A DNA stretch of 64,000 nt. Source: Flectonema sp. DT1601 (Eukaryota). The stretch spans positions 620,001 to 684,000 of the forward strand of contig OZ025796.1 in the NCBI GenBank assembly GCA_964019425.1, in the 5' to 3' direction. This document shows positions 1,452-64,000 of the stretch, piece by piece; position 1 is the first letter of the stretch; every line of letters starts with the position of its first letter. Under the pieces are notes generated by a model. That model ran no database searches. It was not told the DNA's origin and saw only the letters and a list, made by a program, of their open reading frames with translations. Both the position numbers and the translations under genes were made by a program.

Positions 1452-2806
1452 CGGTTGTGATTCTACAATTGCAACAATTGTCCTTTATGGAAAGAAGCAA
1501 CAACCGTGTGCTCCCAGTTGTGTGAGGACTTCAAGAAGTCGCTGATCTGCGCTATTGAATACTTGCGAATCGCCATCGAATTTATATAAATCTTTATAAA
1601 TCTGTCGCCCGAGGGCAGTGCGGGTTTGATTGCCGCGTTGAGCTTGATGCTCACTCTGATATTACAATCAGGGTGAACTCGGAGTCCAAGACAGCTTTTG
1701 AATCTGCACATGTAGAACTTTCCTTTAAATTCATCAACTACGGAAGTCTTGGACTTCGCTGCCAGGAAGCCAAGGTCGTTTTTGAATTGTAAAGTTGGCC
1801 AACATCACTTCCGTTTGACCGACTCGGGTTTCTGATAAAGACATTCTTGGGTTTGTCAGTTTTAGGTTCGCTGTTGTTGTCCAGAACCTCGTGTACTTGG
1901 TTTCTGGGGACTCTGATTGCCATTGAGGTGTGGGACTCGTTCTTCCTGTAGCTAAAGGGGTCCGCCTTATCTTCAATTTTTTAAGAATATCGGTCGTTTT
2001 GACTGTCAATTCTTTCTCAGCCAGTCTTGGATAAATAGAACTGGGTCGGGTGTTGGTATCTGGTGGTTAGGTGCTGCTTTTGAAAAATCCTCACCAAAGA
2101 CGTGCGTGTAAAGTACTCGCCTGATCTCGCAGACGCCACCTTTTTTGATCACCGGTATTGCTACTGGAACCGTGCCCTTTGTGAGCGGATTTTGCTGATA
2201 GCAGCCCATCGGCCGCTCTTCTTCGTTTGACGAAGCGTTTCTGAGTCTTGTTTTGAACGGACCAGAACAAGACCAGATATCAAATTGTTTGTAGCATTAG
2301 CTGCTACGTCGTAACTGATGGTGGCCACAGTGCCTGCCCATGCACCGTGAATGTGCCACTTCGGGTAGCTTGCTTTTGCTTTCCCCTTCGTGGTTTGGTT
2401 ATCCGCCCTCATTGCTGTTGGTATTGGCAATGAGAACGGCTTCGTACCCGTTAGTTGATCAGAAGCTGTAGATGCTCCTGTAGTTGGTTGGTTGACACCG
2501 TGGTTGGGCGCTTCTGCTGCCGTCGTCGCGGTCGCTTCCGTCCCACCACTCCCATCGGTCTCCTCCTCTTCATCTCCGGGTTCCCACCTTCTGACCCAGC
2601 CACAAATTGAACGATCTCTATCAGGAGATTTGCCACCCTTCTTTCCTTCTCTTGCTCCGGGATCCCGTCATCTCCCACCATCTTCAGGAGGTTTATAGCC
2701 TCCGACACCAACCTCTTCAGGTTGTCTCTCATAATTGCTTTTCCTGTGAAACGTACCCACTAATTCTTACCAATATTTGGTTGCAAAATCAATAAAGAAC
2801 AGAACT
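1452..2806 (-). pseudogene. Degenerate LINE-C 5' part (SL remnant plus frameshifted ORF1)
   Basis: Minus-strand peptides MRDNLKRLVSEA..., ASYPKWHIHGAWAG..., MAIRVPRNQVH... and CRFKSCLGLRVHPDC are collinear with the two halves of LINE-C ORF1 (28479-29272 and 56165-57020). The copy begins with TTCTGTTCTTTATTG (SL 3' end, 1 mismatch). Confidence 0.85.
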
Positions 2807-23568: not shown

Positions 23569-23580
23569 TTTATTTATTTA

Positions 23581-26500: not shown

Positions 26501-26994
26501 CTACCGATAAAGTGCCGTGGTCCGCATTAGAGAAGGAACAATAAGATCAAACATTCAGGAAGCGAGAATCTCCGAGACCAAGCTAAATCTTTCAATAATG
26601 TTTGCGACGAGAAATCTTCACGCCCTAGCAGGCTACTTATGGCATTTGGAACAACGAACAGGCTTATCAAACTGTTAACTGATTGGTAGTTGCTAATTCA
26701 TTAGTATCATTCTCCCTTATCACACTCCTTAATCACCTCCTAATTTCTCTGAGGACATCCGCAGAGCTTCATGGCTCGTAGGTAACCCAGTGGTCTTTGG
26801 CCACCGTCCCTGTACTGATCCTTCGCTTTATATTAACTGTGTCTTGAGATTCCTATCCGGGGAAGTCCTCCAACGGACTCAGGACTTTGCGGGTTTGCGG
26901 GTAAGAAGGGCAAGAATGCTCAGAATGAAGAAAAATAAAGTGGAAAGACAGGGGGGATGTGACTAAATAAATAAATAATAAATAAATAAAAAAA
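23581..26994 (+). mobile_element. LINE-B copy 2 (5'-truncated; nonsense TGA 24219-24221, same frameshifts, Zn-finger deletion near 26515)
   Basis: Tandem to copy 1; ORF 25243-26499 encodes the same peptide as 21740-22996. Confidence 0.9.
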
Positions 26995-28242: not shown

Positions 28243-28314
28243 TGCGCTCACCGGGAGTCGAACCCGGGCCGCTCGCTTGGAAGGCGAGAATACTAACCGT
28301 TATACCATGAGCGC
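28243..28314 (-). tRNA. tRNA-Gly(TCC), identical to 8902-8973
   Basis: Same 72-nt cloverleaf, different flanks. Confidence 0.95.
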
Positions 28315-28381
28315 GTATATACATCATTTTCTTTTATCTATTAGTAGAGGTGGCGGTATAATCACCATGGTGAAGAGAGGC

Positions 28382-28421
28382 TTCTGTACTTCTGTACTTC
28401 TGTACTTTCTGTACTTTATTG
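28382..28421 (+). other. Stuttered spliced-leader remnant (TTCTGTAC)x3 + TTTCTGTACTTTATTG
   Basis: Last 16 nt equal the 3' end of the SL at 29271-29309. Confidence 0.85.
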
Positions 28422-28478: not shown

Positions 28479-29272
28479 ATGAGAGACAACCTGAGGAGGT
28501 TAGTATCGGAGGCTATGAACCTCCTGAAGATGGTGGGAGATGATGGGATCCCCGAGTATGAGAAAGAGAAAAGAGTAGCGAATCTCCTGATGGAGGTTAT
28601 CCAGTTCGTGACGGGGTCGGAAGGTGGGAACCCTGAGATGAAAAGAAGAAGACCGGACACTCCCGAAGTGGGTGGTGGGACGGATGCGACCGCGACGGCA
28701 ACCGAAGCGACGGCCCCTACCGCAGGCAGCAATCAACCGACAACAGAGGCGTCTACAGCTTCTAATCAACAGACAACATCGGCACCTAAACAATCAACCT
28801 TTTCGTTTCCGCTGCCTGTACCATCATCAACATCGACTAAACAAACCACAAAGGGGAATGCTAAAGCAAGCTACCCGGAATGGCATGTACACGGCGCGTG
28901 GGCGGGCACTGTGTCTACAATCAACTACGACGTAGCAGCGAATGCTACCAACAATCTCGCATCGGGTCTTGTTTTAGTACGCTCTAAACAGGACTGGGAA
29001 GCTCTCCGTCAGACAAAGAAGAGTGGTCGATGGGCTGCAATCAGCAAAGTACCGCTAACCAAAAGCACGGTGCCTGTCGCCATACCGGTGATCAAAAAGG
29101 GTGGTGTCTGCGAAATCAGACGAGTCTTCTACACGCATATCTGTGGTGAAGATTTTTCCAAAGCCACATCCGAAATTCAACATCCGACACCCGACCCCGT
29201 CTTGTTTGTTCAGGATTGGGGCAAATCAAGTGAAAAAGATCTAACGATCAAAACAAAGGAACTGCTAAAAAA
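28479..29272 (+). pseudogene. LINE-C ORF1, N-terminal half (interrupted)
   Basis: Homologous to the minus-strand copy at ~1990-2732; breaks at ...KELLK. Confidence 0.85.
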
Positions 29273-29309
29273 CCAACGATTCTAAAGCTACAGTTTCTGT
29301 ACTTTATTG
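29271..29309 (+). other. Complete 39-nt spliced-leader exon fused to kinase 5' UTR
   Basis: AACCAACGATTCTAAAGCTACAGTTTCTGTACTTTATTG has the euglenozoan SL length and conserved 3' half; not followed by the GT intron of an SL RNA gene. Confidence 0.92.
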
Positions 29310-29342
29310 CCCCTCCCCCTCCCCCGCTCCACAGCTGACAAC

Positions 29343-30263: not shown

Positions 30264-30294
30264 GGGAAGAAATTCATCATTGTTTGTTCGTATT

Positions 30295-42538: not shown

Positions 42539-42577
42539 AACCAACGATTCTAAAGCTACAGTTTCTGTACTTTATTG
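42539..42577 (+). other. Second complete 39-nt spliced-leader exon
   Basis: Identical to 29271-29309; follows the RLE-1 poly(A) and is joined to the first 462-bp unit. Confidence 0.92.
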
Positions 42578-45535: not shown

Positions 45536-45888
45536 CTTAGCGCTTTAAAGTCTTTTAAGTCGCAGAAGTCGCCCCCGTCGCCCCCCGACCCCCACAGGGT
45601 ATTGAACCCAGGTGGACCAGAAGACAGACGGTGACAAAAACCACTGCACCAAAGTATATTGTTGAAAAAAAATTTTTATTTATTGTTTATTATATATATT
45701 AATTAGGTCATATTTATTTAGAAGAATTTGGTATTACTTGTCGTTGTTTATTTAGAAAATACTAAGGAAGAAAGAGGAAGAAAAAAAAAAAAAAAAAAAA
45801 AAAGAAATTAGATTTTGCATAGGCATACTTGCAGAGGAGGAGATAAACGCGGGTCCTTCAGTAAGCTCTAGTACATCGGCGGGGTAGG

Positions 45889-46687: not shown

Positions 46688-46798
46688 ACTCCACACACAC
46701 GTACAGGGCTAACAAGGAGAAGAGCAGGTAAGTCGATTGTCTTTTTTCGGGTTCCATACACAAATCATCCACAGCGAAGAGAACGGAAAAGGAAGAGT

Positions 46799-46844
<46 letters not shown>

Positions 46845-46847
46845 AGA

Positions 46848-49800: not shown

Positions 49801-52800
49801 TGGCGGGCACCCTGGAACAGGTAGACAAGGCCCTCCAAATCCTGCAGAAGGAGACGGCGGAGCTGGGGCTGACGCTGAGGCCGGACAAGTGCCAGACGCA
49901 CGTGCTCGACTCAGCCCAGAACACCCTGCCCTTGGGGTGGGGGTTGGAAGGGATGAGACCCCCACTGTACAACGGGGACTTCCTGGGGGCACCGTTCGGG
50001 ACGGAGGAACACTGCCAGGAGTTCGTCGACAGGAAGGTGGCGCAGCTGGAGAAGAAAGCGGAGCTGCTAGCTGACCTGCAGGACCGGCAGGTGGCCATGG
50101 TGCTCCTAAGGCAATGCATGGGCTTCTGCAAGGTGACCCACCTGATGCGATGCTGCACGCATGGGAAAATGGACACCTCGATGCGGAAGGTGGACGAGCT
50201 GATGAGGTCCACGGCGAGCCGAGTGTTGGGCCTGACACTGGAGGGGCCAAAGTGGATGCAAGCACAACTGCCGACCCGGATGGGGGGATTGGGGCTGCGG
50301 TCATGTGCAGAGCACAGGGGAGCAGCACTATTGGGATCCCTGGAATTAGTCCAAGGGGTGAGCAAGTCACTGTGGGAGGGGTTCAAGGGGGTGCTGATGC
50401 CAGCACTGAAGAAGGGGTTGAACCTCGCCCTCCCGGAGGAGCTAAGGATAGAAGAAGACGGGCCGGGGCCGAACCCCCAGAGGCTGTCCTCGGCGAAACT
50501 GGACCAGGTCAAGAGAGACTGCCTGCTGGCGGGGGCGAATGACCCGCGCGATAAAGGGAGGCTGCTCTCCCTGCGCATGGATAAGGCGAGCGCATGGCTG
50601 CAACAAGCAGATGAAGAGTGCGCGATGGACCCAGAGACGTTCAGGATCGCATGTGGGATGCGATTGGGCGCAGCGCTGTTCGCGGAAGGGGCAGTATGCA
50701 GGATATGCTCAGGCCCACAGGATAGGCAGGGATACCATGCCTCAATCTGTATCAAAAACGGCCACGTGCACCAGCGACACGAGAGGGTGAAGGAGGAGTT
50801 CATCTCCATCTTTAAGCAGGCGGGATTGCCGCTGCTGAGAGAACCCAGCCACCTACTGGGACCCAACAAGCAGAGACCGGGGGACTGGTACTGCCAAGAG
50901 GGGCTGAGGGAGGGGAGAGGCAGAGCCTTCGACATCACAGTGGTAAACCCGGGGAAGATTAAATTGTATAAAACCCCGGGGCAAGCCGCGAGAGAAGCAG
51001 AGTCCCTGAAAGGGAACAAGTACGCGGAGCAGTGCACGAAACACGGGATTAATTTCTCGACAATTGCGCTGGAAGCGTACGGAGGGATGGGACGGGAAGC
51101 AGTGGGGACCCTGAAGAAGTTGGTGCAGATCTGCGCAACGAACTCGACGGTGCCACACCGGGAGATCGCGGGGGAGATGGCGAGGAGGATCTCGACATCG
51201 GTGGTAGTGGCGACGGCGGAAGCACTGAGAGCGAGGGAGGCGTCGGTGGCGATGGACTCAGTGAACCCATTGCCAAGGACGAAACCGCCGCCCGAGATGA
51301 CGGAGAAGCCGACATCACAAGAGAGAGAACCAAGACCGAGAGCGGAAACGGAAGAGATCCAGCAGCCGGAAGTAATGCGACAGTCGGCAGGACCGCCCCC
51401 GACGATGAGAGGTTTGCCGAACATCGGGAACTCCTGCTACCTCAACGCGTCCGTACAGTGCCTGCTGAAGGGCACGGCACTGACACAAGTGCTGACGGGG
51501 AAGGAGGAAGTGGGGATGTCGGGCCTCCTGAGTGGAGTGGTCAAAGGGAGTGGGGAGTGCCTGGAGAAGCTGTCCGAGATGTTCGACCCGCTACAAGACA
51601 GGCGGCAGGGGGAGGTAGTAGGAACCCTGACGTCCATAGTAGACGCCCTGTTGGAGGAGAAGAAAGAGGTGTGCGAACCGTTGTTCTCGGCAGTACAGCT
51701 GAAACAGCTGGTCTGCACGGGATGTGCGGACGCCTCCGGATCGACGGATGAGTTGACGCTGATCCCACTGTGTGGCCGTACACCACAAGTGAGGCTTCAG
51801 CCGACGAAGGAGAGAGTCGAGCGGTCCTGCGAGAAGCTGTGCGGCAGCAATGAGGCCACGCTGGAAGAGAGTTTCGCCTCGCTCCCAAGCTCCTTGATCT
51901 TCCAGAGAGACAAGCAGGACACGCAAGGGTCCTTGGGATGGGAAGAGCGCTTCCAGGTGCAGGTCGGGGAGAGGGTGATGACGTACCAGCAAACGGGAGC
52001 GATCGCACACCTCGGGAGTGACAACGCGGGGCATTACGTGTCATACACGTGGGACGGAGTAGGCTGGCAGAAGCAAGACGACAAGGCAATAAGCCAAGTG
52101 TCGACAGAGGAGATCCACGGGACGAAACCAGTAGTAGTGGTCTACTCGAGGGTGGAGGGATCGACCCAAGAGGACGTCGGGGTGCCGGTGAGATGGATTC
52201 CGGTGGCGAACAAGGACCGGATGGAGGTACGCGAGGCACCGCCGTCGGAGGAGGACACCGCGGGGTACACGTCCAGGGAAGAGGCGGAGTGTGTCCTCCG
52301 GACGCGAGTAGTAGGGGGGCAGACGCAGCGCAAGCTGCTCTTACTGGTATCGAGCGTCTGGAACGCGGAGATGGAGAAGCTGGGGGCGGCAGCATGCCTG
52401 ATACACATGGGAACGCTCGACAGGAGGTTCACGTGGTCGGGCTGCCTACCGACATGGGACGAAGCGACTGCGGAGTACGTGGCAGCGCTGCTAGGGCTCA
52501 ACGCGATCAGGGAGAGATCGCAACTGCTGGGGGGTGAGACACAGATCGAGGTGGTCACACCGCAGCAGGGGTGGGGAGCCGAGCAGCAGGAGGCGCTGAA
52601 GTTGGTAGCGCTCCCGTCGGTGATAGAACACCAGGTGACGGAAAGCTCACGAGGGGTGGAGAACCTGGCCCTCTGGGAAGCGGAATCGGCGGCATGGGAC
52701 GAGCCGGTGGAACTCTCGGAGGACGGGCTCGACTACTTGGTGATCGAGCTGGAGATGAATCTGGGGCTGTCCCAATTGAGGGGAAAGGCGGTGGAACCGG

Positions 52801-55370
52801 ATGAATCCCAGTCGCTCCCAGGAGGGTCGACGGCATCAGGCGAAGACAGACCACGAGCCGAAGCGCCAGCCCAGGTGGAAGCGCAGACGACGGAAGCACA
52901 AGGAGCGGAAGCAGTAGGGCTGAGAGACGAGCCAGCACAGGAAGTGGGACAACCCGAGGAAAAAGAGCCCCCATCCCCCGACCCCCCGTCGAAGGAGGAG
53001 AAGCTGTATGCGGTGGCGGTGGGATGGAAACCGGGAGTGTATGCATCGTGGGAGGAGGCGAAGGCACAGACGGAAGGGTGCCCGAATGCGACACACCAGA
53101 GTTTCTCCTCCAGGAAGGAGGCGGACAGGTTCGTAGAGAGGTGGCAGCCGGAGACCAGGGAACCGACCCGGGCCACGGAGGGTGTCAGCCCACGTAAGTG
53201 GTACGCAGTGGCGAGGGGCAGGGCGGTAGGCCTGTTCCAATGCTGGAACGAGGCGAACTCGATGGTGTCAGGCTACGCGGCGGCGAGACACAAGAGTTTC
53301 GCAAGCAAGGGGGAGGCGGAGGGATACCTCCAAACCCACCTGCTGGGGGAGGTGGTTGGCGAAGTAGGGACGAGGTACACCTTGGTGTACGCATGCGAGG
53401 AAGACCCGGTAACGGGCCGTCTGGGGGCGGCGGCGAGCTGGTTGGACACACACCGTTTCGAGGTGTTGGGCACATGGTCAGCTGGCCTGCCAGCGGGAGA
53501 CACACACTGGGGGCGATACTTCGCAGCCCTGGTGGGGCTGGTAGCGGCCAAGGCGTGTGGAGGCCTCGTCCCAGCGGAGGCATCCCTGCTGCTGCGAGGA
53601 AGCACGACACACTGGTCGACGGACCAGAGAGAGGTGCTGGAGGAGGCGGAGTTGATGGGGAGGCGTACGACGCTGGTGGAGATGCCAGAGAGGATGAGAA
53701 CACACGCGACGGAGGAGGCTGAAAAAGCGGCGAAGGAGGGCTCGACCTCAGTGACGGAAGCCGTGATGAAGGTTTTCACAGAGGGGGCAAAGAACTGCCT
53801 GGGACACGGGACACAGACGGGTCCCTTCACGGTGCGGTGGGAGGGAAGACAACTGCGTCTGGAACCCCAGTACACAGAAGAGGGGACGGGATCGTCAGGC
53901 GGCCGAGAGTCGGTGGAAGGAGAAGACGCGAGGGTAGAGGGCCGAGACGAGCAGAGCCCGGTCCCAACCCCGAAGGGGGCCGTGCAAAGGGTAGAGGCGG
54001 GAGTCCTGGAGTTGAGCTCGGAAGGGTCGGAGGGAGATGACGATAGATCATCCTCCCCAGCGACAGGGCAGGACGAAGGGAACGGTTCCATGTCGGGAGG
54101 CTCCTTGGGGAGTCCAGGGACGTCGGACATGGAAGTAGAAGAACAGACGGACGAAAGGGACCAGTCAGTAGACCCGTCGGCAGCAGAGACCTCAGGCGAA
54201 AACCATCACCTGGCCGAGGACCTGCAAGCCGAGAAGGGGGACGAGCTGGACGAGACGTCCCACCACTCAGGAGAGCCACCGTCGTCAGACGGCATGGACG
54301 GAGTGGAGGGGTTGGAGGACCTGGAAGACTCACAGTCGGAGACGGAAGTCGACGGAGAAAATGTGACGGAAGGGTCAGTAGTCCAGTACGTCGAGGAGAC
54401 GTCAGAGGACGTGGTCCAGGTGGCAGAGTCGGACACAGAGGAGGAGGGATCGTCAGACTCCCAAATGACCATGACGGTCGATGAACAGGAATGGGAAGAG
54501 GGAGCGGCGCCCGAGGGGAACGCAGGTCAGATGGCCTGGATGCTGGGACTACACCCAGAAGGGGGGAACGCGGAAACACGACGGGAGGGCCAATCGGAGC
54601 CCCTTTCAAAGCTGGTGAACTCAGGCGAAACAAAACCAATGGCCGAGAGATCCAGTTTGGGGGCGAAGATGGGACCACGCGCAGTGGGTAGTGACGGGAG
54701 CGGGGAAGACGCAGAGAGATCGCCGGGCACGGTGTCGACACCGAGCACGAGAGGGAGGACGAAGTACAGAAAGGGAATGGAGGAGGAGAGGGAGGAGTGT
54801 GTGTCGCCGAAGACAAATACGGGAAGGGGACGCACGAGAGGCCGGAAGGCAAAGACGGGGGCAAAGGGGGCCGGAAAGGAGGACCCAAGTCCGCAGGTGT
54901 TGCAGGCGGAAATGGGAGAGTCCACCCCGAGCTCAGGTGAACGGCAGGCGAGGAGGAGGTACAGGAAGGGAGAAGAGAGGGAGAGGATAGAGGTTCTCTC
55001 CCCAGACCCGAGCAGGAAAGCGAAGAGGAAGAGACGCAAGCAGAAGGAACCGGAGCCAGTGGAGGGCACCACGAGGGAACAGGCGCCGCGGAGTTACAAC
55101 AGGAAACCCACACTGCGTCGGGTAGGTAAGGGAGACACACCCGACACAATGGGGTACGCACACGGGCCCCCGGGCTCCCTGACCTCGTTCACGGACGCGG
55201 GCGTACGCCCGGAGCCGGCGGAGCGAGACGGACAAGGTGTGGCAGGAGTAGAGTTGGTCACAAGGTCGTCGTCACAGAGTGAGAAAAGCACCCAAGGAGA
55301 GATGAGGGAGAGAGAAGGGGATCCAACGCGAAGGGTCCTGGACTTCTCGTCGAAAGGGGGAAGGCGCTAG
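46848..55370 (+). CDS. RLE element 2 polyprotein (~2840 aa): ZnF - OTU - ZnF - RT - RLE - USP - RNaseH-like - 2x RNase H1 N-terminal - RNaseH-like - acidic tail
   Basis: GDGNCLFRS..WG..HYD; HRPVAVGE, DFSNAFN, GAQQGDP, YLDD; RHE..RPGD..FDITV..ESLKGNKY; GLPNIGNSCYLNA..GHY..QDD; YAVAVGWKPGVYASW and WYAVARGRAVGLFQCW. 3' UTR and poly(A) run to 56157. Confidence 0.9.
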   Translation: MEKTMLLCGYVLLWALLSGTRAQQTSGVGKQRLAPVPGGWHTPLFTTLDKGPLFSSRISRRVTRPIPPHPFITPNSSNSPNNTASGRAFQHGREGVWVPRRGTETAGNRVRRDHPKPPPDKGGRELLKRASPKVASKAARRLERRRRKLLKERQERWERWAGELEKFHARRERFRAETERPRKNKAETPKKRRAGPERDWTKPGGHKAEPRPWYARPSDLAGGGQSKERTKCPVVGCSVWVRGDLEYHFKQHLKGVVPGEVTAQMASDRLGKQICKACGELSTGLVHQTVRCREMLDLKGRLGVATGPTPELASLKCEGAKVFRVIGDGNCLFRSVCQLLETPEGWKGRHGELRRRTAGYLTKNRERFEVFFQDADAFGVYARALEEDGCWGDALALQVMAEDLQCRFVVVVRTETLVVEGPSDPKRTLVLTLQNGCHYDPVEASEDCVARLLQSARRLELVSPGPLSQAAGGEPAVLQTASRQAQLHECPQAECPKHKGGFEEWAELLRHVDEHAFSGNPLTHGQLARLGLRECPVCCGIIGQDQPMHPGCSEKLQKVQLGDVYTAFRKRVLESQSFPSLEEIASRRRPIAKKLPVSLLHHLGRALKLSLDLVVERNDEWAWKLLLMLPTCTLRRIRRGGRRLSTSDLTGAVDDLQAWIRGEFEGLWKAAAPRKATGRPAVKEAGQKGRNDRATSLAREGCLSQAISALDAPPPAERTEKVLEQMRTLHPRASGPPSATAGQEVQIAEVELLACLRSFHRGSSGGPSGLAPQHLKDVVERGEVPGLVASITEVVRILANGRAPREVAPLLAGANLTALEKEGKPGEHRPVAVGETWRRLVAKILCGAYRSQARSSLLEVRQLGVAVSGGVEAAVHTLHEFRAEHALSSQKVFVKIDFSNAFNCVKRGAFLDSTRDTLLESWVSWCYGAPTWLLFGDERLSSEEGAQQGDPLGPLLFSLAIKPALQKVLEAKPELACFYLDDGLVAGTLEQVDKALQILQKETAELGLTLRPDKCQTHVLDSAQNTLPLGWGLEGMRPPLYNGDFLGAPFGTEEHCQEFVDRKVAQLEKKAELLADLQDRQVAMVLLRQCMGFCKVTHLMRCCTHGKMDTSMRKVDELMRSTASRVLGLTLEGPKWMQAQLPTRMGGLGLRSCAEHRGAALLGSLELVQGVSKSLWEGFKGVLMPALKKGLNLALPEELRIEEDGPGPNPQRLSSAKLDQVKRDCLLAGANDPRDKGRLLSLRMDKASAWLQQADEECAMDPETFRIACGMRLGAALFAEGAVCRICSGPQDRQGYHASICIKNGHVHQRHERVKEEFISIFKQAGLPLLREPSHLLGPNKQRPGDWYCQEGLREGRGRAFDITVVNPGKIKLYKTPGQAAREAESLKGNKYAEQCTKHGINFSTIALEAYGGMGREAVGTLKKLVQICATNSTVPHREIAGEMARRISTSVVVATAEALRAREASVAMDSVNPLPRTKPPPEMTEKPTSQEREPRPRAETEEIQQPEVMRQSAGPPPTMRGLPNIGNSCYLNASVQCLLKGTALTQVLTGKEEVGMSGLLSGVVKGSGECLEKLSEMFDPLQDRRQGEVVGTLTSIVDALLEEKKEVCEPLFSAVQLKQLVCTGCADASGSTDELTLIPLCGRTPQVRLQPTKERVERSCEKLCGSNEATLEESFASLPSSLIFQRDKQDTQGSLGWEERFQVQVGERVMTYQQTGAIAHLGSDNAGHYVSYTWDGVGWQKQDDKAISQVSTEEIHGTKPVVVVYSRVEGSTQEDVGVPVRWIPVANKDRMEVREAPPSEEDTAGYTSREEAECVLRTRVVGGQTQRKLLLLVSSVWNAEMEKLGAAACLIHMGTLDRRFTWSGCLPTWDEATAEYVAALLGLNAIRERSQLLGGETQIEVVTPQQGWGAEQQEALKLVALPSVIEHQVTESSRGVENLALWEAESAAWDEPVELSEDGLDYLVIELEMNLGLSQLRGKAVEPDESQSLPGGSTASGEDRPRAEAPAQVEAQTTEAQGAEAVGLRDEPAQEVGQPEEKEPPSPDPPSKEEKLYAVAVGWKPGVYASWEEAKAQTEGCPNATHQSFSSRKEADRFVERWQPETREPTRATEGVSPRKWYAVARGRAVGLFQCWNEANSMVSGYAAARHKSFASKGEAEGYLQTHLLGEVVGEVGTRYTLVYACEEDPVTGRLGAAASWLDTHRFEVLGTWSAGLPAGDTHWGRYFAALVGLVAAKACGGLVPAEASLLLRGSTTHWSTDQREVLEEAELMGRRTTLVEMPERMRTHATEEAEKAAKEGSTSVTEAVMKVFTEGAKNCLGHGTQTGPFTVRWEGRQLRLEPQYTEEGTGSSGGRESVEGEDARVEGRDEQSPVPTPKGAVQRVEAGVLELSSEGSEGDDDRSSSPATGQDEGNGSMSGGSLGSPGTSDMEVEEQTDERDQSVDPSAAETSGENHHLAEDLQAEKGDELDETSHHSGEPPSSDGMDGVEGLEDLEDSQSETEVDGENVTEGSVVQYVEETSEDVVQVAESDTEEEGSSDSQMTMTVDEQEWEEGAAPEGNAGQMAWMLGLHPEGGNAETRREGQSEPLSKLVNSGETKPMAERSSLGAKMGPRAVGSDGSGEDAERSPGTVSTPSTRGRTKYRKGMEEEREECVSPKTNTGRGRTRGRKAKTGAKGAGKEDPSPQVLQAEMGESTPSSGERQARRRYRKGEERERIEVLSPDPSRKAKRKRRKQKEPEPVEGTTREQAPRSYNRKPTLRRVGKGDTPDTMGYAHGPPGSLTSFTDAGVRPEPAERDGQGVAGVELVTRSSSQSEKSTQGEMREREGDPTRRVLDFSSKGGRR

Positions 55371-56099: not shown

Positions 56100-56159
<60 letters not shown>

Positions 56160-56164
56160 AAAAA

Positions 56165-57020
56165 GAAAAAGATTAATGCAGCCCCTTTCAGTTACAAACG
56201 AAATGATTCACATTCCTCAATGGCTATTAGAATTCCCAGAAACCAAGTACACAAGATTCTGGAGTTTAACAATAACGACCCGGAGACCGACAAACCTAAG
56301 AATGTATTTGTCAGAAACCCGAGCTGGTCAAATGGAAGCGATGTCTGGCCAACTCTTCAATTCAATAACGATCTTGGATTCTTGGCAGCAAAGTCCAAGA
56401 CATCAATACTGGAAGGTTTCGAAGGTAAATTCTACCTGTGTAAGTTCAAAACCTGTTATGGACTCCGAGTTCATCCCGACTGCAACACTGAAGTGCGTAT
56501 TAAGTTAAGCGCGTCACTCAAACCTGCACTGCCTTCCGGTGACAGGTACATTATAAAATCAATGGCGATACGGAAATTCTCAACAGCGCAGATCAGCGAC
56601 TTTATGAAGTCCTCTCACAACTGGGAGCACACAGTGGTCGCATCGTTTAACAAAGGTGGAAGCACTACGATTGTGGCGATTTCAAACACGCAGCCTCCCA
56701 ACTTCGTGAGCATAGGCACCAATGAGTACCTTGTGATAAACAAGGAAGTTAAGAAAAGTGACAGAAAACCGCTAGGCCCAACCTACAACCCAGGCGACGC
56801 GGCTCAAAAACTGACAGGAACCCTGAAGAGACAGAAGACAGCTCCTCAACCACAACAACCAACTCAGCTACCACATCAGACGGCAGCAGCACCGACACCA
56901 GCGCCAGCACCCACACCAGCATCAGCTCCACCACCCACTGAATCTGCTGTTAAACAAGAAGGTGATAAGAACGGCGATGTTGAAATGGAAGATGATGACT
57001 CGGATTTTGACCTCAACTGA
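56165..57020 (+). pseudogene. LINE-C ORF1, C-terminal half
   Basis: MAIRIPRNQVH...HNWEHTVVASF matches minus-strand 1452-1960; in frame with the N-half once the insert is removed. Confidence 0.85.
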
Positions 57021-60000
57021 CTAGATGAAGATGACGATGATTTAAATCCGACCAACTCACTCACAGAAAAGAATACGGCTCGTGAACTGCTGCTTCAGAC
57101 AGGCGATGTCGAACGCAACCCTGGCCCTGACGACTCCCTCATATCACTACTAAGCTGGAACTGTCGATCGATGGGGAACAAAGGTGCCTACATACACAAG
57201 CTGCTCAATGCCTATGCGCCTGACGTACTGTGCCTGCAAGAAACTTGGACAAAAGATGTAGTCTCACACACGGATTATTTTACCTATCGGAATGATAGGG
57301 CAACACGGGGTGGTGGGGTTATTACTATGGTGAAGAAATGCCACACTCAGCAGCGTTCTGATATCGTACTTCCGCCTCACTTAAATGATGTTGAAGTTGT
57401 AAAGGTCAACATAGGTGGAAAGATTGACATCTTAAATATTTATGCTCCCCCGGGATGCAAGATCAGAAAGTCAGATCTTCCAGTCTCAACGAAAGCAATC
57501 GTCGCGGGTGACTTTAATGCCCATCATCCGGTGTGGTCATCAAAATCGACGCCAGCAGGTTCTACTCTACATGAATGGGCAGCACACAATGATCTACTGG
57601 TAGCCAACAAGATGGGGTCAATCACAAGGCCTTTTCCTAATATCCCGGGGGGCGGTACCTCGCCGGACGTAGTATTTTTTCAAAACTCGATGATTCTGGA
57701 AGAATTCTCTGTAATTAGAGAAGATAATAAACATGGATCTGATCACCGACCTCTCTACACCGTACTGGATCCCATGTGTCAACTTACACGTGCCACGATA
57801 GGTTCTAAGAAACGTGTGGTGTGGGACTTCAAGTCTACGGACTGGAACTGCTTTGGAAATATGCTCGATAAGAGAATTAGAAAATCGAAACTCTCCAACG
57901 ATGCAACTGCGAATGCTAAGCTCTTTAACAACATACTGCATGAAGTGGCGGCTAAATTCATTCGTCGACGTGTCCTTTTCAAAGGGAAACGGAGACGAAA
58001 GTGGAAGACGTCAACACCTGATTCTACCAAATCGAAGGGTGTCCACCTACGTGATCAACTTGACAAGGGTAACAACTTTGCCTTCGCGTTTAAGAAGATC
58101 AAAGAACTGCAACAAGATGCTGGTAAAGATATCAGTGTCAACACCGACTGCGACCTACCATCAGCATTCTTGGACCTGTTTGTCTCGAAATCGGAAATAT
58201 TATCGCTAGAGGCCCCCGCACTCTCAGAAGGTGATAATGAAATAGATATTTGCTGTGATTTCACAATGGCTGAAATTAAAGCTGCGATTAAGAACCTGAA
58301 GACCCGCAAGGCTGCAGGACCTGATGGAGTTCACAATGAGATGATCAAAAACTTCACTCCGGCAACAGTGGAATACCTCCTGAGAATTATTAACACTTCC
58401 TGGAAGACTTCAAAAGTACCGTACCAATGGAAACAGGGACTAATCAAGCCTATGTTCAAGGCTGGAAAACCTCGAAATGAACTGAAGAGTTTCAGACCCA
58501 TTACGCTCACATCGGTTGTTGGGAAACTTGCGGAGAGGCTCGTGTATGACCGACTCATGCACTGGCTCACTAAACATTCGTCACTCAGCCCACTACAGGC
58601 TGGATTCAGAAGGGGGAGAAATACCTGCGAACAGATCACCGTTTTGGTAGATGCCGTCGTAAGGATGCACATGAAGAGAAAGAGATCGGTGTTCTTATCG
58701 TTTGATTTTACTGCTGCGTTTGACAGGATCAACCATAAGATACTTTTATTAAAATTGGTAAAGATGGGTGTTCCGAATGTTATTATCAGATGGATCACAG
58801 ACTTTCTTACAAACAAGAAGGTTAGAGTTGAAGCGAATGGTTATCTTAGTGAATTCCGTACTCTGGCTAAGGGGGTTCCACAGGGATCGATCCTGGGTCC
58901 TCTTCTTTATCTTATCTACGTTGATGACCTCTGCAAGATTTTGGAACTGGAGAAAGAAACAACGACGTCTGCTCTGTATGCGGATGATACAGCATGTGTA
59001 GTATCTGGACATAACATGGAAGAAGCTCTTTCAAATGCTCAAATAATACTTGATAAAGTGGATCAATGGTGTTCTGACAACGACATGGCCCTGTCGGTCT
59101 CAAAGACCTGTGCTCTTAAGATGAAAGTCCGTACGAAGGATACGATTCTCAACGACACCTGCAATCGCGAATTACTATTTTCCAGATCTGTTGTGGAAAA
59201 CGTTATCAAAATGGACTATAGTGACATTGAAAAGAGTATCAACTTAAACTCTTCTAGACCCATGCTTCAAAGCGGCGAAACTATTCTCGAGGTTGATGGA
59301 ACTCCGATCAAAACGCAAGACGAACTTGACAACGTGATGTTGCGGAATATTGTTCTCGAAAACAACGTGATGGTGGTGAAAGCCAGATTTAAAACCGCAT
59401 TTCTGTTGCCAATCGTGGACTCAGTGAAATACCTCGGAGTTCACATCGACGACAGACTCACTTTCCACAAACAGGTGGCTAAGATTCATGAAGAACTGAA
59501 AAAGGGAATATCTCTGCTTCAATGCCTTCAACCGTATGATCTTGACTACAAAACGCTAAATATGGTCAAGAACCTTTACGTAACTGCGAGAATCTCTTAT
59601 GCACTCGATAGCTTTGGTTGGTTGATAAGCAACAGCGTTGATAGTATTGATTTCGAACTGAGGAAGGTTGCCAGGCTGGTTACTGGATGCAGCAGGTGCA
59701 CACCGAGAGAACTTCTACTGTGGGAAGCGGACATGCTTCCTTTTAAACGTCAGATCGAAAAGCAAACCAAGATAGCGTACTACAGGTATAAAGCCATGAC
59801 TTGGATACCTAGTACCAACAGACTCGCCTCAACCCAAAGCTACTGGGCTGGCCTCCTTCCTGGCATTGACAGCCAGCGTGAAAGCCAGTGCCTTGTACAG
59901 CCTGACTCGATGGAACCCTGGGTATCTCCGACAAACCTTAGGATTAGCAACGGCTGCGGATTTCCGAAGTCCGCGAACCCTGCGGTGGACAAAGAAAAAT

Positions 60001-60926
60001 TCATGTCGTACATTGGAACGTTACCTCCTGTCGACATGGTAATCAACTGCGATGGCTCCTACTCTGCTTCCGGCGCGGCCGGTGCGGCTCATATTGCCAA
60101 GTCACGTAGCGGCCTTCGATCTGCTTACGCGTCTAGGCTTTATCAAGCTGACTGCAGCTACAGGGCTGAACAACATGCTCTGAAGAACGCGGCTAGACAT
60201 CTGAGAACAGTGTTTAGCAAAGATCCTTCAATGAGATCTGTAAGGCTATTCACGGACTCAAAATCCCTTCTGGATGAACTGCTGGGTGGAAGGTGCAGAC
60301 AGAGGAATACTGAGTCCCTCAAGATACTAGAATACCTGCGCATGTGTGAGATGAAAGTGCATTTGCAATTCATCCCCTCGCACATTGGAATCGAGTTTCA
60401 CGATGAAGTTGACGCGCTTGCAAAGGAAGCAGCGCACAACAAGAACATCCGACCTGTGCTAGTCAAAGGCACTTACTTCTCGCGATCATCACATGTTAAG
60501 CGCTGCATCAAAAAGGATCTGCTTAACGTGAGTGGCTACACCTGCTACAAACACCTCATCGGAGGCCGTTCCGTTAAATACCCTCCTGGGATGGAAAGAG
60601 CCGACGAGATACGGATAGCGAACTTCCGGACAGGATGTCACCCGCTAATTCAGAACTGGCGCAAAAATATCGACTGCCCATTTTGTGGCGAACCGTCCTC
60701 ACAGGTTCACCTGCTGCAGGGATGTCAATCTCCCAAACTCGACTCTGCCAGGTTCAAAATCCTGGGCTTCTCAACACTGACCGGCAAGTGGGATCGCGAT
60801 CGAGAACTTATTATTGCCAACGAAATTCCTAACCTTGAAGCTCTCTTCACTTTGGCGTGGCTTCCATCACTCGCGTTGATCATAAGGTGGATGGAACAAA
60901 CATCTAACCTTAGACTTTGGAAGTAA
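57021..60926 (+). CDS. LINE-C ORF2: 2A - APE - RT - RNase H - CCHC (intact; true frame starts upstream of ATG 57171)
   Basis: SWNCRS, CLQETW, GDFNAH, GSDH; DFTAAFD, GVPQGS, YADD, YLG; NCDGS, AEQ, TDS, PSH; CPFC..H....C. Confidence 0.93.
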   Translation, partial: LDEDDDDLNPTNSLTEKNTARELLLQTGDVERNPGPDDSLISLLSWNCRSMGNKGAYIHKLLNAYAPDVLCLQETWTKDVVSHTDYFTYRNDRATRGGGVITMVKKCHTQQRSDIVLPPHLNDVEVVKVNIGGKIDILNIYAPPGCKIRKSDLPVSTKAIVAGDFNAHHPVWSSKSTPAGSTLHEWAAHNDLLVANKMGSITRPFPNIPGGGTSPDVVFFQNSMILEEFSVIREDNKHGSDHRPLYTVLDPMCQLTRATIGSKKRVVWDFKSTDWNCFGNMLDKRIRKSKLSNDATANAKLFNNILHEVAAKFIRRRVLFKGKRRRKWKTSTPDSTKSKGVHLRDQLDKGNNFAFAFKKIKELQQDAGKDISVNTDCDLPSAFLDLFVSKSEILSLEAPALSEGDNEIDICCDFTMAEIKAAIKNLKTRKAAGPDGVHNEMIKNFTPATVEYLLRIINTSWKTSKVPYQWKQGLIKPMFKAGKPRNELKSFRPITLTSVVGKLAERLVYDRLMHWLTKHSSLSPLQAGFRRGRNTCEQITVLVDAVVRMHMKRKRSVFLSFDFTAAFDRINHKILLLKLVKMGVPNVIIRWITDFLTNKKVRVEANGYLSEFRTLAKGVPQGSILGPLLYLIYVDDLCKILELEKETTTSALYADDTACVVSGHNMEEALSNAQIILDKVDQWCSDNDMALSVSKTCALKMKVRTKDTILNDTCNRELLFSRSVVENVIKMDYSDIEKSINLNSSRPMLQSGETILEVDGTPIKTQDELDNVMLRNIVLENNVMVVKARFKTAFLLPIVDSVKYLGVHIDDRLTFHKQVAKIHEELKKGISLLQCLQPYDLDYKTLNMVKNLYVTARISYALDSFGWLISNSVDSIDFELRKVARLVTGCSRCTPRELLLWEADMLPFKRQIEKQTKIAYYRYKAMTWIPSTNRLASTQSYWAGLLPGIDSQRESQCLVQPDSMEPWVSPTNLRISNGCGFPKSANPAVDKEKFMSYIGTLPPVDMVINCDGSYSASGAAGAAHIAKSRSGLRSAYASRLYQADCSYRAEQHALKNAARHLRTVFSKDPSMRSVRLFTDSKSLLDELLGGRCRQRNTESLKILEYLRMCEMKVHLQFIPSHIGIEFHDEVDALAKEAAHNKNIRPVLVKGTYFSRSSHVKRCIKKDLLNVSGYTCYKHLIGGRSVKYPPGMERADEIRIANFRTGCHPLIQNWRKNIDCPFCGEPSSQVHLLQGCQSPKLDSARFKILGFSTLTGKWDRDRELIIANEIPNLEALFTLAWLPSLALIIRWMEQTSNLRLWK
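57105..57128 (+). other. 2A (StopGo) peptide core DVERNPGP
   Basis: ELLLQTGDVERNPGP fits the GDxExNPGP consensus, in frame and just upstream of the APE start motif LSWNCRS. Confidence 0.9.
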
Positions 60927-61435
60927 AGTAGGTGACATGTAGTCGCCAATATCAATTTGTTATTATTTTTAGTATTTTCATCATTATCAATCATCTCCTG
61001 GTTGGGTAACTGCACATCACCTTCGGTGTTGTCGCAGTGTCTCTTCCAACACTCCTGTCTCCTTTTTCTCCTATTTTCCTTATAAATTTCTCTTGAGGGC
61101 AGGCCTTCGGGCTGTTCAAGTGGTCTTTGACCACCGCTCTAGTTATATGCTCGATTCTTTGTTTTTCCTTATCGATGGTAGGAATGGTAACCGAATTAGC
61201 TTCGTGTGTCCAATTTCAAGGACGCGTGTCCATTTATTTTTTCCCGTTGCCGCTCTTCTTACGTCCTCAGGCGGAGCCTACCTATGTTTCCCGTGTTTTC
61301 CAATTTGTCAGACTTAAACCAAAAGAAAGTATAAAAGAAAGACAAAACAAAGAAGTGAAAAGAACAAAAACAAAGAGTCTGGAAGCACAGACGAGTGTAA
61401 CCAAAAAAAAAAAAAAAAAAAAAAGAGAGGCTTGA

Positions 61436-61666
61436 GGGGGCGTCATAGTGCAGTGGATGGGGTGGTGCCCCCGCACCCAATCGGCCTCGGTTCGAACCCC
61501 GCTGTACGCACCGCGCCTCACAGCGCAATCAGTTTCCGTGTCGCATCCCCCATTGTCTCGAAAAAGTGAACGGCCACCCAGTAAGGGCAGCGCCTAAGCA
61601 ATTATAGTAGTAACAAAAAGAAGGAGAAACACAGTAGTGAAACACTCAAAAAAAAAAAAAAAAAAA
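61436..61666 (+). mobile_element. tRNA-derived SINE-like element with LINE-A-related motifs
   Basis: A box TAGTGCAGTGG, B box GGTTCGAACCC; CCGCGCCTCACAGCGCAATCAG matches the LINE-A 3' UTR (19631-19652); ends CACTC-poly(A). Confidence 0.6.
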
Positions 61667-61990: not shown

Positions 61991-64000
61991 CTACCTTTTT
62001 TGATTGTATCTCGAAGGCGCATCAGCGGGATTTTCAGCAGATGGTACGTACTTTACATGAAGGACAGAACTCGACTTCTCAAGTCCCGCCAACATCATCT
62101 CTAGCATCGGAGACGCCTGTTCCACTAGAGTGTATCCACGTTTAACCGCAGCAATCACAGCAACGTTGTCAACCGCGGCATGTATGTCGAGGAGTTGATG
62201 ATTCAATTCAATGACCTTGAGAACTCCATAGCACAGAGCATACATTTCCTTCACGTAAATATCGTATCCCTGAGGATTCACGAAGGAACCCCAAAATTCC
62301 TCAAAAGAAGCCAACAAGACAACTCCCCAACCAGAACCACTAGCATCAGTGGCGATTCTTATCACCTTGCGTTCTGGATCGATCACCCATGTTGCCCATT
62401 CGTTTTTGAAGAGCGCAGAGAACTGCACTTCAATGTACTTCGCGATTGGTTCAACAGATGTCAATTCAGTCCACGGACGTCCCAGGGCTGCAGTACGTGA
62501 CATCCAAGTAAGAATGGGGCGCAGAAATCTCATCAGACCGCCAAGAGCATAGAAACGCCACACCAAAATCCCACAAATCTTCCATGCGACACGAATCGGA
62601 ATAGGCTTTTCCAACAATGAAGTAATTGCAATCAGCTTCTGAGTCCACTCGGAACGACAACGTATACGTTTACGTTCGAGGTCCCATTCAATCCCAAACG
62701 CAGTCAGTTTCGTACCCACAGGATCAACATCCCCAAGTACAACTCGATATCTCTGGCAGAGTAATCTAAATTTAAGTCCAACTTCTTCAAGCTGACCCTT
62801 TTCATCAGACACAAAGACAACATTATCCATCCAAACCAGAAACCGAACAGACAGACCCGAAGTTGCAACTTCTGCGAGTTTCTCAGCAAACCTCTGACCC
62901 GCCTGCGGGGTGCACTTGAATCCCATAGGTGCTCGTTTCATACGTAACAGACGATTACCAACTCGAAATCCAAAGATGTTTCTTATCTCCGTAGGAAGTA
63001 GAAATTGAAAGTAAAACGATTTAAAATCAAACTGTGAAATCCACTCAGAACTCATTATCGTGTTGCGAATAGTCTGATACGAAGGCAAAGCACACTTGGG
63101 AATGACGACACCGTCCAGTGCTTTATTGACCCCTTTTGGGTTCAAAATAAAACGAAGAGCTCCAGGTTGTTTCTTTTTGACACAGAAGGCACCACTCAGA
63201 ATACGGCTTTTACACGAATGTGGAATCGATTCAGCAATGTCAAGGTCAATTAAGCGTTGAACATGAGGCTCTAGTAGTTTGTTCGGAGGACCCATTGCAC
63301 CTTTTTTTAAGGATGTGATGTGCCCACCAACGTCTAAAATCCATTTAAAATTGTCTTTGCACTCTGGATAGTCGTGCAGAAATGAATCTAAATCAATATG
63401 AGTCAGAGGTGACGAAGCGATCTCCCCTTCATAACAAGCCCTCCTTGCACGCGGAACGCCTGCTTCATCGAGCCATTCGGAAAAAGAGTCTGCATATCCA
63501 TAATCATCCATCGCACATTCGAGTGAAGACATCCCTCTAGGCCAGATATCCACGTTCAAATCTTCTGCAGCAGGTCTGTCGGCTGTAGGGAGTTCTTCGT
63601 GCCCTTCCAGGTCTCGTGAGGAATGTATTTGAGCGTTGACACGTCGGACTTGTGCCTGGCCAAGGTCTGAGCTGCGTCCTGTCCTATCTTTGTCGCGACA
63701 AAACCTAGTGCGGAATGTCTGACATAATGCGAGGTCGTCGCGATACGCCTCTTCAAAAACGCGTTGTAGTTGGATAGTGTCAAACCTGGAAAGATTTGGC
63801 TGTCGCCCTGCAGTGTAGTCAGCCAACGTCTCAGAATCTGGAAAAACGGACCGGTCGTATTGATCAATAGACCCTGTCCTTGGGCCCTGATGTCCGTCTT
63901 TCCCGCTACAAGAGTGATCAACGTCTGATTCCCTTTGATTGTACGAATGTGATGAACGCAGAGAAGTTCGAGATCCCGAAACCGACAAGCAAGCATCCAC
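61991..64000 (-). CDS. RT-RNase H of a tyrosine-recombinase retroelement (VIPER/TATE/DIRS-like); 5' end outside window
   Basis: LRFILN, DFKSFYFQ, PMGF, WMDN, FGIEWD (RT); TDASGSGWG, KEM, VDN, SAENPADAPSR (RNase H). Confidence 0.88.
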   Translation of the reverse strand: MDACLSVSGSRTSLRSSHSYNQRESDVDHSCSGKDGHQGPRTGSIDQYDRSVFPDSETLADYTAGRQPNLSRFDTIQLQRVFEEAYRDDLALCQTFRTRFCRDKDRTGRSSDLGQAQVRRVNAQIHSSRDLEGHEELPTADRPAAEDLNVDIWPRGMSSLECAMDDYGYADSFSEWLDEAGVPRARRACYEGEIASSPLTHIDLDSFLHDYPECKDNFKWILDVGGHITSLKKGAMGPPNKLLEPHVQRLIDLDIAESIPHSCKSRILSGAFCVKKKQPGALRFILNPKGVNKALDGVVIPKCALPSYQTIRNTIMSSEWISQFDFKSFYFQFLLPTEIRNIFGFRVGNRLLRMKRAPMGFKCTPQAGQRFAEKLAEVATSGLSVRFLVWMDNVVFVSDEKGQLEEVGLKFRLLCQRYRVVLGDVDPVGTKLTAFGIEWDLERKRIRCRSEWTQKLIAITSLLEKPIPIRVAWKICGILVWRFYALGGLMRFLRPILTWMSRTAALGRPWTELTSVEPIAKYIEVQFSALFKNEWATWVIDPERKVIRIATDASGSGWGVVLLASFEEFWGSFVNPQGYDIYVKEMYALCYGVLKVIELNHQLLDIHAAVDNVAVIAAVKRGYTLVEQASPMLEMMLAGLEKSSSVLHVKYVPSAENPADAPSRYNQKR
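63556..64000 (-). CDS. Tyrosine recombinase C-terminal part, overlapping the RT frame
   Basis: SHYVRH (HxxR) and LARHKSDVSTLKY (His and catalytic Tyr); Arg in ACRFRD. Confidence 0.8.
   Translation of the reverse strand, partial: WMLACRFRDLELLCVHHIRTIKGNQTLITLVAGKTDIRAQGQGLLINTTGPFFQILRRWLTTLQGDSQIFPGLTLSNYNAFLKRRIATTSHYVRHSALGFVATKIGQDAAQTLARHKSDVSTLKYIPHETWKGTKNSLQPTDLLQKI

Follow-up and report, generated by a model that had tools for sequence, protein, structure and literature searches.

The window, by which we mean the whole 64,000-nt stretch of DNA that was analysed, contains a young two-ORF LINE of the APE-RT-RNase H type (28384-61422) from a marine protist, likely a diplonemid. The features used in the analysis are as follows.

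28373..28383, plus strand: 11-bp target-site duplication on the 5' side of the complete element; the 11-mer recurs at 61423-61433, and these are its only two plus-strand copies
28384..28421, plus strand: 5' end of the element, in which the 3' part of a spliced-leader-like sequence is repeated as stuttered copies; these match the 3' end of a 39-nt leader
28479..29270, plus strand: ORF1 5' half, equal to the start of P0180
29271..56157, plus strand: nested 26.9-kb insert that splits ORF1 in the window copy, with TAAAA duplicated (29266-29270 and 56158-56162)
56160..57017, plus strand: ORF1 3' half, equal to the end of P0180, with a Pro/Ala hinge and an acidic tail ending ...DSDFDLN
57018..57024, plus strand: ORF1 stop TGA with 3' CTAG, the proposed readthrough site; unchanged in an external contig
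57021..57125, plus strand: 35-codon in-frame acidic linker with 2A peptide (...ARELLLQTGDVERNPG), core kept in P0121 and P0002
57025..57045, plus strand: mini-ORF MKMTMI* in the +1 frame; three out-of-frame AUGs directly after the stop
57075..57077, plus strand: ACG in frame, flanked by A (-3) and G (+4), candidate non-AUG start 17 codons before the skip
57126..60926, plus strand: predicted mature pol from Pro, with APE SWNCRS at 57153, RT at about 58473-59135 and RNase H at about 60033-60434
60927..61422, plus strand: 3' UTR and poly(A) tail; the 3' terminal motif also occurs at 9297 and 2843 on the minus strand
61423..61433, plus strand: 3' target-site duplication
1482..2804, minus strand: broken sister ORF1 copy of the P0208 subtype, ending short of the stop

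The element had the poly(A) tail (before 61423) and the target-site duplication (11 bp) of an APE-type non-LTR retrotransposon (LINE). The 39-nt leader was also present at 29271 and 42539 in the window, and we take this spliced-leader-like sequence to be the euglenozoan spliced leader. The sister copy at 2804 (minus strand) was preceded by the same leader remnant as the 5' end of the element. The RNA copied into the element was likely trans-spliced and carried both ORFs, and the copy in the window is full-length, with one leader remnant ahead of both ORFs. The insert within ORF1 contained a leader with a kinase retrocopy, two OTU-RT-UCH elements, a 462-bp array and poly(A). P0180, which corresponds to ORF1 at both ends, was 549 aa long and identical on 5 contigs. 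The sister ORF1 copy ended before the stop, so the junction could not be tested from it.

The domain order of ORF2 was examined with Pfam profiles, which placed APE (PF03372/PF14529) and then RT (PF00078) in one ORF. RNase H followed RT: PF00075 scored 29.7 bits against a cut-off of 25.8 on the cut-out domain and gave no match on the whole ORF2 at E 0.001. A Cys/His knuckle was found at 60675-60725, and the best solved relative was LINE-1 ORF2p (E 2e-20). The branch test indicated purifying selection on the ORF2 of this subfamily (C1), with 1 of 20 changes at outgroup-invariant sites against 5.7 expected (P 0.011); the same test for subfamily C2 gave 5 of 20 and was not significant (P 0.47). 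For ORF1, no Pfam family scored above cut-off, no Atlas match was obtained, the structure model was of low confidence (pLDDT 40), and the PDB gave no match at E 0.001. Of the pattern matches that the ORF1 alignment produced in metagenome contigs (174) and in viral contigs (28), none was confirmed as a relative.

As the initial annotation had stated, ORF1 ended with AAC TGA CTA G (57015-57024), and frame 0 remained open from 57021 to 60926 (1301 codons). The translation across the junction was ...EMEDDDSDFDLN*LDEDDDDLNPTNSLTEKNTARELLLQTGDVERNPG/PDDSLISLLSWNCRSMGNK. The annotation had further described an acidic run spanning the stop, followed by a 2A peptide and then the APE with no in-frame ATG before it. 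This order was observed: the 2A core began at 57102, the predicted skip fell between 57125 and 57126, SWNCRS began at 57153, and the earliest in-frame ATG (57171) lay inside the endonuclease. The stop context matched that of type II readthrough signals, namely UGA followed by CUA(G) with an open frame downstream. The alphavirus type II signal is UGA-CUA (PMC3542737), and UGA_CUAG gives a readthrough of about 1.5-17% in mammalian cells (PMC9841425). CTAG accounted for 0.19% of the 4-mers in the element and followed 6 of the 2020 TGA trinucleotides on both strands of the window, and none of the stops of 11 other long ORFs checked preceded CTAG. Viral type II signals usually carry a 3' stem-loop, whereas the region here folded worse than shuffled sequences (z +2.17 and +1.99); in cellular UGA_CUAG cases, 12 nt of 3' sequence are enough for readthrough. 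No paper on CUAG readthrough in euglenozoans was found among the matches listed. A reading of UGA as Trp in the host was ruled out: four of those 11 long ORFs terminated in UGA, and a 4006-codon ORF with 56 TGG and no internal stop was further evidence that UGA is an ordinary stop. A +1 frameshift at the stop was also rejected, because TAG comes next in the +1 frame.

The conservation of the junction was then evaluated. A sense codon at this position in intact copies had been named in advance as the observation that would speak against recoding. Among the 28 ORF1 proteins listed (of 33 cluster members), 21 ended at DSDFDLN, covering three subtypes that were 79-92% identical; the other 7 stopped short, and none continued beyond DSDFDLN. 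No ORF1-pol fusion protein was found among 3 matches of 495-2000 aa, which is a weak test. The terminal residue was Asn in 6 of 7 ORF1 lineages (26-63% identity, with unalignable tails) compared with 7 of 235 control proteins. This result pointed to constraint at the stop, although the Asn could instead be a protein-level motif. We also compared four external sequencing runs with 56180-58200. One bridged the stop, one gave a contig ending one base past it, one had no match, and one yielded only repeat-like pieces. In a read-sized 151-nt contig from another study, covering 56951-57098, the junction was identical across the stop. The CTAG at +4 to +7 was observed in the window copy and in one near-identical external contig only.

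The 2A peptide, LLLQTG-DVERNPGP, had a D(V/I)ExNPGP core with an upstream G and a leucine-rich stretch, and it was kept in three subfamilies. This core and its helix-zone pattern were compared with those in PMC12846837 and PMC13405545. The leucines occupied -13 to -11, the LLL helix zone, and leucines at these positions have been linked to 2A activity (PMC13405545). GDVERNPGP ended 8 residues before SWNCRS, which placed the 2A immediately upstream of the APE. The motif alone is no proof of skipping, because a 2A-type phenotype was recorded for 821 of 3,271 tested 2A-like peptides (PMC13405545). The mini-ORF MKMTMI* within the linker is probably a homologue of MKPTTV, the N-terminus of family P0002 (67% identical); the best-fit back-translation matched 14 of 18 nt, compared with 6-7 in neighbouring registers (null P 0.012).

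The start codons of related lineages were compared. No callable start preceded APE motif I in any of the 6 entries of this subfamily or of the 8 entries of family B1, whose ORF2 was 44% identical. In C2 (ORF2 93% identical), all three entries had a start called 21 codons ahead of the skip; all six entries of family C3 had one 33-34 codons ahead of it; and all four Flectonema proteins had a Met before motif I. Called start positions varied by lineage (21, 31, 33 or 34 codons before the skip, or none). The gene caller also marks TTG as Met (P0183); some of the starts that it called may therefore be other codons than AUG. The pairing of ORF1 and ORF2 subtypes was based on contigs of matching length and was firm for C1 and C2 only. 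The C3 start best fitted the +1 AUG just behind CTAG, 4 nt after the stop; CUAG may thus reflect stop-start inheritance rather than selected leakiness. Since no AUG precedes endonuclease motif I in this subfamily, translation of ORF2 must begin without one.

Collectively, readthrough at UGA-CUAG followed by StopGo was the best explanation of pol expression, and we assign it a probability of roughly 0.55 on sequence evidence. Most ribosomes would stop at UGA and release the 549-aa ORF1 protein. A small share would read UGA and extend ORF1 by one residue and the 35-residue acidic linker with the 2A, where the predicted skip would free an untethered APE-RT-RNase H protein beginning at proline. 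Readthrough would then likely set the ORF1:pol ratio. The 2A would also make the N-terminus of pol independent of the route by which the ribosome enters the linker, which may explain why AUG was gained, shifted or lost in sister lineages. For the wider proposal, that Asn-UGA-CUAG readthrough sets the amount of pol in a diplonemid LINE clade and StopGo 35 codons further on frees the enzyme, we see about even odds. The in-frame gag-UGA-pol junction of Candida Tca2 indicates that local sequence need not suffice for readthrough, for this junction alone gave none in yeast (PMC2194720).

A less likely but serious alternative is termination-reinitiation, in which a few ribosomes would begin again within the linker. 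They would use an AUG in the sisters and, in this subfamily, ACG 57075 or no proper start codon at all. Restart would perhaps follow the six-codon mini-ORF, and the 2A would then trim the leader. The starts that were called ahead of the 2A in C2, C3 and Flectonema, the mapping of the C3 N-terminus to the AUG behind the stop, the A at -3 and G at +4 of the ACG and the unstructured linker are all consistent with it, as is the AUGA stop-start overlap of another LINE family in the window (LINE-A). LINE-1 ORF2 reportedly tolerates the loss of its AUG, which counts in the same direction. Reinitiation is also the route proposed for SART1 and LINE-1 (PMC5972666). Under this reading, however, the canonical UGA-CUAG and the open frame would be coincidental, and a start at ACG would place only 17 residues before the skip, below the 18-23 usually needed (PMC13405545). 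Start positions were unconserved among lineages, some perhaps not AUG at all, and reinitiation after a long ORF is considered inefficient (PMC3894237). We considered it improbable that CUAG is a spliced-leader acceptor, with trans-splicing at 57024 producing a separate ORF2 mRNA that begins at the AUG behind CUAG. Trans-splicing matures diplonemid mRNAs (PMC10161547), YAG stands directly before the AUG to which the C3 start maps, an AUG that is in frame in C3, and a leader remnant lies on the element's own 5' end. However, no polypyrimidine tract was found (the 43 nt upstream were 45% pyrimidine, with a longest run of 4), and none of the 4 leader-like matches in the window lay at the junction or close to it. 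The AUG of this subfamily is not in frame and opens a short uORF that closes after six codons, so ribosomes would have to restart and a second, non-AUG step would still be needed.

Still less probable is that this subfamily makes no complete pol, either starting at Met 57171 inside the endonuclease or being copied in trans by AUG-bearing sisters. The first in-frame ATG was indeed the start chosen by the gene caller, and AUG-bearing sister families were present in the same assembly. However, a product from 57171 would be missing APE motif I (SWNCR) and with it the Asn on which activity depends. Both the 2A and this motif were intact, full-length ORF2s were 99% identical across several contigs, and the purifying selection described above fell on this very branch. 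A copy-specific nonsense change or a sequencing error at TGA in a single ORF1-2A-pol frame would account for the acidic run that carries on across the stop, but this reading was refuted by the ORF1 end shared across the listed members of three subtypes. It was also at odds with the separate ORF1 proteins in all 7 lineages, Flectonema included, and with the identical external contig, and it is practically excluded.

If UGA-CUAG readthrough followed by StopGo is true, the element would be the first readthrough-gated non-LTR retrotransposon, and its stop would be the first readthrough signal of the CUAG type from a euglenozoan, extending UGA-CUAG to a deep eukaryotic branch. It would also be a natural case of a 2A making the ORF2 start codon dispensable, with lineages switching between readthrough and reinitiation. 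Confirmed readthrough would mean that a non-LTR element follows a gag-pol-like strategy in which ribosome skipping takes the place of the protease. The matter bears on the wider question of how LINEs translate ORF2 when one RNA carries two ORFs. In the published view, the retrotransposon 2A brakes pol output in place of ORF1 (PMC3894237); the family here keeps both ORF1 and 2A. Near-identical subfamilies differ in whether a start codon is present within a 105-nt linker, which offers a short cassette for direct tests in a group of hosts for which genetic tools exist.

The 2A before APE is already known in LINEs, and readthrough is already known in viruses and LTR elements. The initial annotation had regarded their combination as undescribed in a LINE, and our literature search likewise found no LINE joining the two. 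Its placing of 2A upstream of APE in ingi/L1Tc agreed with PMC3708506 and PMC12278014, and the window element resembles these in its APE-RT-RNase H pol, 2A directly before APE, poly(A), target-site duplication and euglenozoan host. An INGI element carries a single ORF that has its own start, and its 5' end holds a 77-nt promoter/ribozyme; in contrast, the window element has a 549-aa ORF1 in many copies, a 5' leader remnant and an ORF2 without AUG, and neither a single ORF nor a 5' Pr77 promoter/HDV-like ribozyme was found. Rfam at gathering scores returned only 2 tRNAs and no ribozyme in the window, a search that a diverged ribozyme could escape. The rare LINEs CR1-26_BF, CR1-53_BF and CR1-1_LG likewise have an ORF1 and a 2A near the ORF2 start, but they belong to the animal CR1 clade, and the available text of PMC3708506 and PMC3894237 mentions no leaky in-frame stop or readthrough and treats ORF2 initiation as open. 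SART1 and LINE-1 also express two ORFs from one RNA with low ORF2 output, but the route proposed for them is termination-reinitiation at an AUG (PMC5972666), with no 2A.

The alphavirus nsP3/nsP4 opal readthrough (UGA-CUA) gates the polymerase with the same stop context. In the virus, readthrough is helped by a 3' stem-loop, and the polymerase is released by a protease; here, no 3' RNA structure was found, and the 2A is predicted to release it. In ONNV, acidic residues even precede UGA CUA G (PMC13517186). The gammaretrovirus gag-UAG-pol and Tca2 gag-UGA-pol also have an in-frame stop between structural and enzymatic ORFs, but these are LTR elements; MLV uses UAG with a pseudoknot, and the source text available describes no 2A. 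A motif survey of viral contigs yielded at least 129 distinct 2A sites at at least 124 loci, at least 52 of which had an in-frame upstream stop; among the matches listed, 0 of these 52 lacked an ATG. In metagenome and genome contigs, at least 120 2A sites at at least 124 loci were obtained, at least 23 with an APE profile match. Among the matches listed, these 23 included 21 with an upstream stop, 2 without ATG and 0 with TGA-CTAG; a looser motif test gave, again among the matches listed, 36 APE-like sites, 33 with a stop, 4 without ATG and 0 with TGA-CTAG. Finally, an RT tree (123 of 125 sequences), built with a reference set holding no named ingi/L1Tc sequence, grouped window, same-assembly-type and Flectonema elements in a 9-member clade (support 0.97). 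This clade was nested in a 33-member clade (0.96) of unnamed elements, in which 7 other members carried a 2A-like motif.

The initial annotation had described a LINE-C ORF1 ending in AAC TGA CTA G, a frame open past the stop and an APE domain with no in-frame ATG ahead of it, and each of these statements was borne out. The element and the motif concerned were located as follows.

28384-61422, + strand: whole LINE-C element, flanked by 11-bp duplications
57153 (start), + strand: APE motif I, SWNCRS (sequence motif)

The ORF1 end lay at 57015-57024, 1301 codons followed the TGA in the same frame, and the first in-frame ATG was at 57171, past motif I. UGA is an ordinary stop codon in this host, and CTAG followed 6 of the 2020 TGAs in the window. 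At the end of the 35-codon linker stood ELLLQTGDVERNPG/P, a motif with no second occurrence on the window's + strand; this 2A had the canonical core with leucines at -13 to -11. ORF2 comprised APE, RT and RNase H domains plus a C-terminal Cys/His knuckle. ORF1 was interrupted by a 26.9-kb nested insert, and its halves corresponded to the start and end of the database protein P0180 (549 aa; identical on 5 contigs).

A sense codon at this position in intact copies had been named as the sign of a copy-specific nonsense change. Of the 28 ORF1 cluster members listed (33 in all), none continued past the stop: 21, belonging to three subtypes that share 79-92% identity, finished with DSDFDLN, and 7 broke off before it. 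These results indicated that the ORF1 stop is real and fixed, and a nonsense change is hardly credible. As for TGACTAG, the stop position was shared by the three subtypes; CTAG was seen in two sequences, the window and a 151-nt contig from another study's run, which equalled 56951-57098 without difference. A search of 495-2000-aa proteins yielded no ORF1-pol fusion (~1850 aa) among 3 matches, which is weak evidence; distant ORF1s (26-63% identity) were separate proteins too. A terminal Asn was found in 6 of 7 ORF1 lineages (leaving out P0260, an N-terminal fragment) versus 7 of 235 other proteins, with a binomial P of ~1e-6 that is overstated because related lineages were counted as independent. 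The tails were otherwise unalignable and mostly acidic, and the last ORF1 codon or residue appears to be under some constraint. In mammalian reporters the P-site codon was a major readthrough determinant, and Asn codons are not discussed in the part of that report drawn on here (PMC9841425). A weak, below-cut-off similarity (PF00428, E 0.024) linked the Pro/Ala hinge and acidic tail of ORF1 (56880-57017) to the tail of 60S acidic P-proteins; it may be compositional.

For C1 and C2, the start calls of ORF2 were taken from 15 listed members of a cluster of 101; called starts may be TTG as well as ATG (database protein P0183). In C1, the window-type subfamily, the called start fell on a Met within APE in all six entries covering the APE start. 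The start lay 21 codons ahead of the predicted skip in C2 (sister type, 93% identical; 3/3 entries), 33-34 codons ahead in C3 (67%; 6/6) and at motif I in B2 (3/3). B1 (44% identical; the P0005 cluster, with related copies at 19846-26700) may be a second lineage with AUG-less ORF2 entry, since a Met within the endonuclease was the called start in 8 of 8 entries. The only named close relatives were from the diplonemid Flectonema neradi (identity 45-50% for ORF2, 48-50% for ORF1), which makes a diplonemid host likely. A Met preceded motif I in 4/4 Flectonema proteins. The Asn of APE motif I is required for endonuclease activity. At outgroup-invariant sites, the C1 branch carried 1 of 20 changes versus 5.7 expected (P 0.011) and the C2 branch 5 of 20 (P 0.47), with 35 changes that could not be assigned to a branch. 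Because such changes were few on the C1 branch, C1 pol looks translated and selected despite having no AUG ahead of motif I; that it is supplied in trans or truncated is very improbable. We regard the arrangement as a real feature of the family: the ORF1 stop is fixed, with a canonical leaky context where its 3' bases were seen, pol lacks an AUG but looks selected, and the 2A is canonical.

From sequence considerations, double recoding would be the most likely mechanism, and we give readthrough of UGA-CUAG followed by StopGo as the C1 route to pol a probability of about 0.55. Ribosomes would read through UGA-CUAG, enter the linker and undergo the predicted 2A skip, releasing a Pro-starting pol. 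Of the ways into C1 pol, only readthrough draws on a known signal and also takes in the whole 2A helix. Readthrough at UGA_CUAG was about 1.5-17% in human cells when 12 nt of 3' context was present (PMC9841425). Reinitiation after the ORF1 stop, which we consider possible but rather unlikely, is favored by the lack of 3' RNA structure after the stop and by ACG 57075, which lies in good context among the near-cognate in-frame codons ahead of the skip (AAG 57069, ACG 57075, CTG 57087/57090). It is also favored by LINE-A in the same window, whose ORFs are joined by an AUGA stop-start overlap (15497-15500, about 9686), the usual reinitiation layout. Three out-of-frame AUGs after the stop opened a six-codon +1 ORF (57025-57045). 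The strongest evidence against readthrough came from C3, whose N-terminus MKPTTV best fitted the +1-frame AUG directly after CTAG (14/18 nt versus 6-7 in neighboring registers; null P 0.012). The next 26 residues matched frame 0, indicating a single-base indel in the linker between C1 and C3. If CTAG also precedes the C3 AUG, reinitiation would be the C3 route, and C1 might owe its CUAG to common descent, with readthrough a later rescue; if C3 is one base shorter ahead of its AUG, compensating indels keep the ORF1 frame in both, favoring readthrough. C3 is known here from protein alone, which fits either case.

A separate trans-spliced ORF2 RNA is improbable, the pyrimidine tract being absent. 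Stuttered remains of a 39-nt leader, which we take to be the euglenozoan spliced leader, formed the LINE-C 5' end; the same leader headed a kinase retrocopy. Partial, stuttered leaders opened LINE-C copies at 28384-28421 and 2804 (- strand), which indicated retrotransposition of trans-spliced RNA rather than a ribozyme-cut 5' end. The copied RNA likely carried both ORFs behind one leader. Under readthrough, reinitiation or a trans-spliced ORF2 RNA, the 2A would yield a Pro-starting pol regardless of the entry point.

Like L1Tc/ingi (INGI), LINE-C has a 2A-APE-RT-RNase H pol, but it lacks two INGI features, the single ORF and the Pr77 end; since these were missing and the RT tree held no named references, LINE-C was not filed as INGI. 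In the portions of the literature cited, ORF1 and 2A together are known but rare in LINEs (PMC3708506, PMC3894237). Readthrough from a structural into a polymerase ORF has precedents in alphaviruses and gammaretroviruses (PMC13517186, PMC3542737) and, probably, in Tca2, whose junction did not read through by itself in yeast (PMC2194720). Motif surveys turned up, among the matches listed, 52 viral 2A sites preceded by a stop, every one of which had an ATG, and 21 APE-linked metagenome sites preceded by a stop, none with TGA-CTAG. The initial annotation knew of no LINE combining readthrough and 2A, and none was found in mainly open-access literature; this view of novelty could be affected by the supplementary element sequences of PMC3708506 and the supplementary repeat annotation of PMC10161547. 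Two related metagenome LINEs, L200 (element strand 2238-3483) and L222, had a TGA 14-16 codons ahead of a 2A-like motif and APE, with neither an intervening ATG nor CTAG; a 239-codon ORF was in frame in L200, and the homologous ORF of L222 terminated in a different frame.

Several further features were observed in the window.

30106-42126: very long ORF (4006 codons)
46713-55370: very long ORF (2885 codons)
8902-8973, - strand: tRNA-Gly(TCC) gene
28243-28314, - strand: tRNA-Gly(TCC) gene

In both long ORFs an OTU protease, an RT, a UCH deubiquitinase and an RNase H1 N-terminal domain occurred together, which is unusual for a retroelement. The first ORF began with 87-bp repeats and overlapped the end of an intron-free protein kinase ORF (29271-30263), which is directly preceded by a full 39-nt leader-like sequence and is a processed retrocopy inserted in LINE-C ORF1. 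The database proteins P0186 and P0192 represented other copies broken at the same A-rich site, which suggests an insertion hot spot. At 42539-45640 lay another complete leader-like sequence and, after it, about seven tandem repeats of 462 bp. Insertions began within about 60 bp upstream of each tRNA-Gly(TCC) gene, and targeting near tRNA genes is possible. An open-ended RT ORF at 61991-64000 (- strand) weakly matched a C-terminal domain of hepadnavirus type, RNase H-like, and is possibly a DIRS/Ngaro-like element, and a tRNA-like stretch lay at about 61440-61515.
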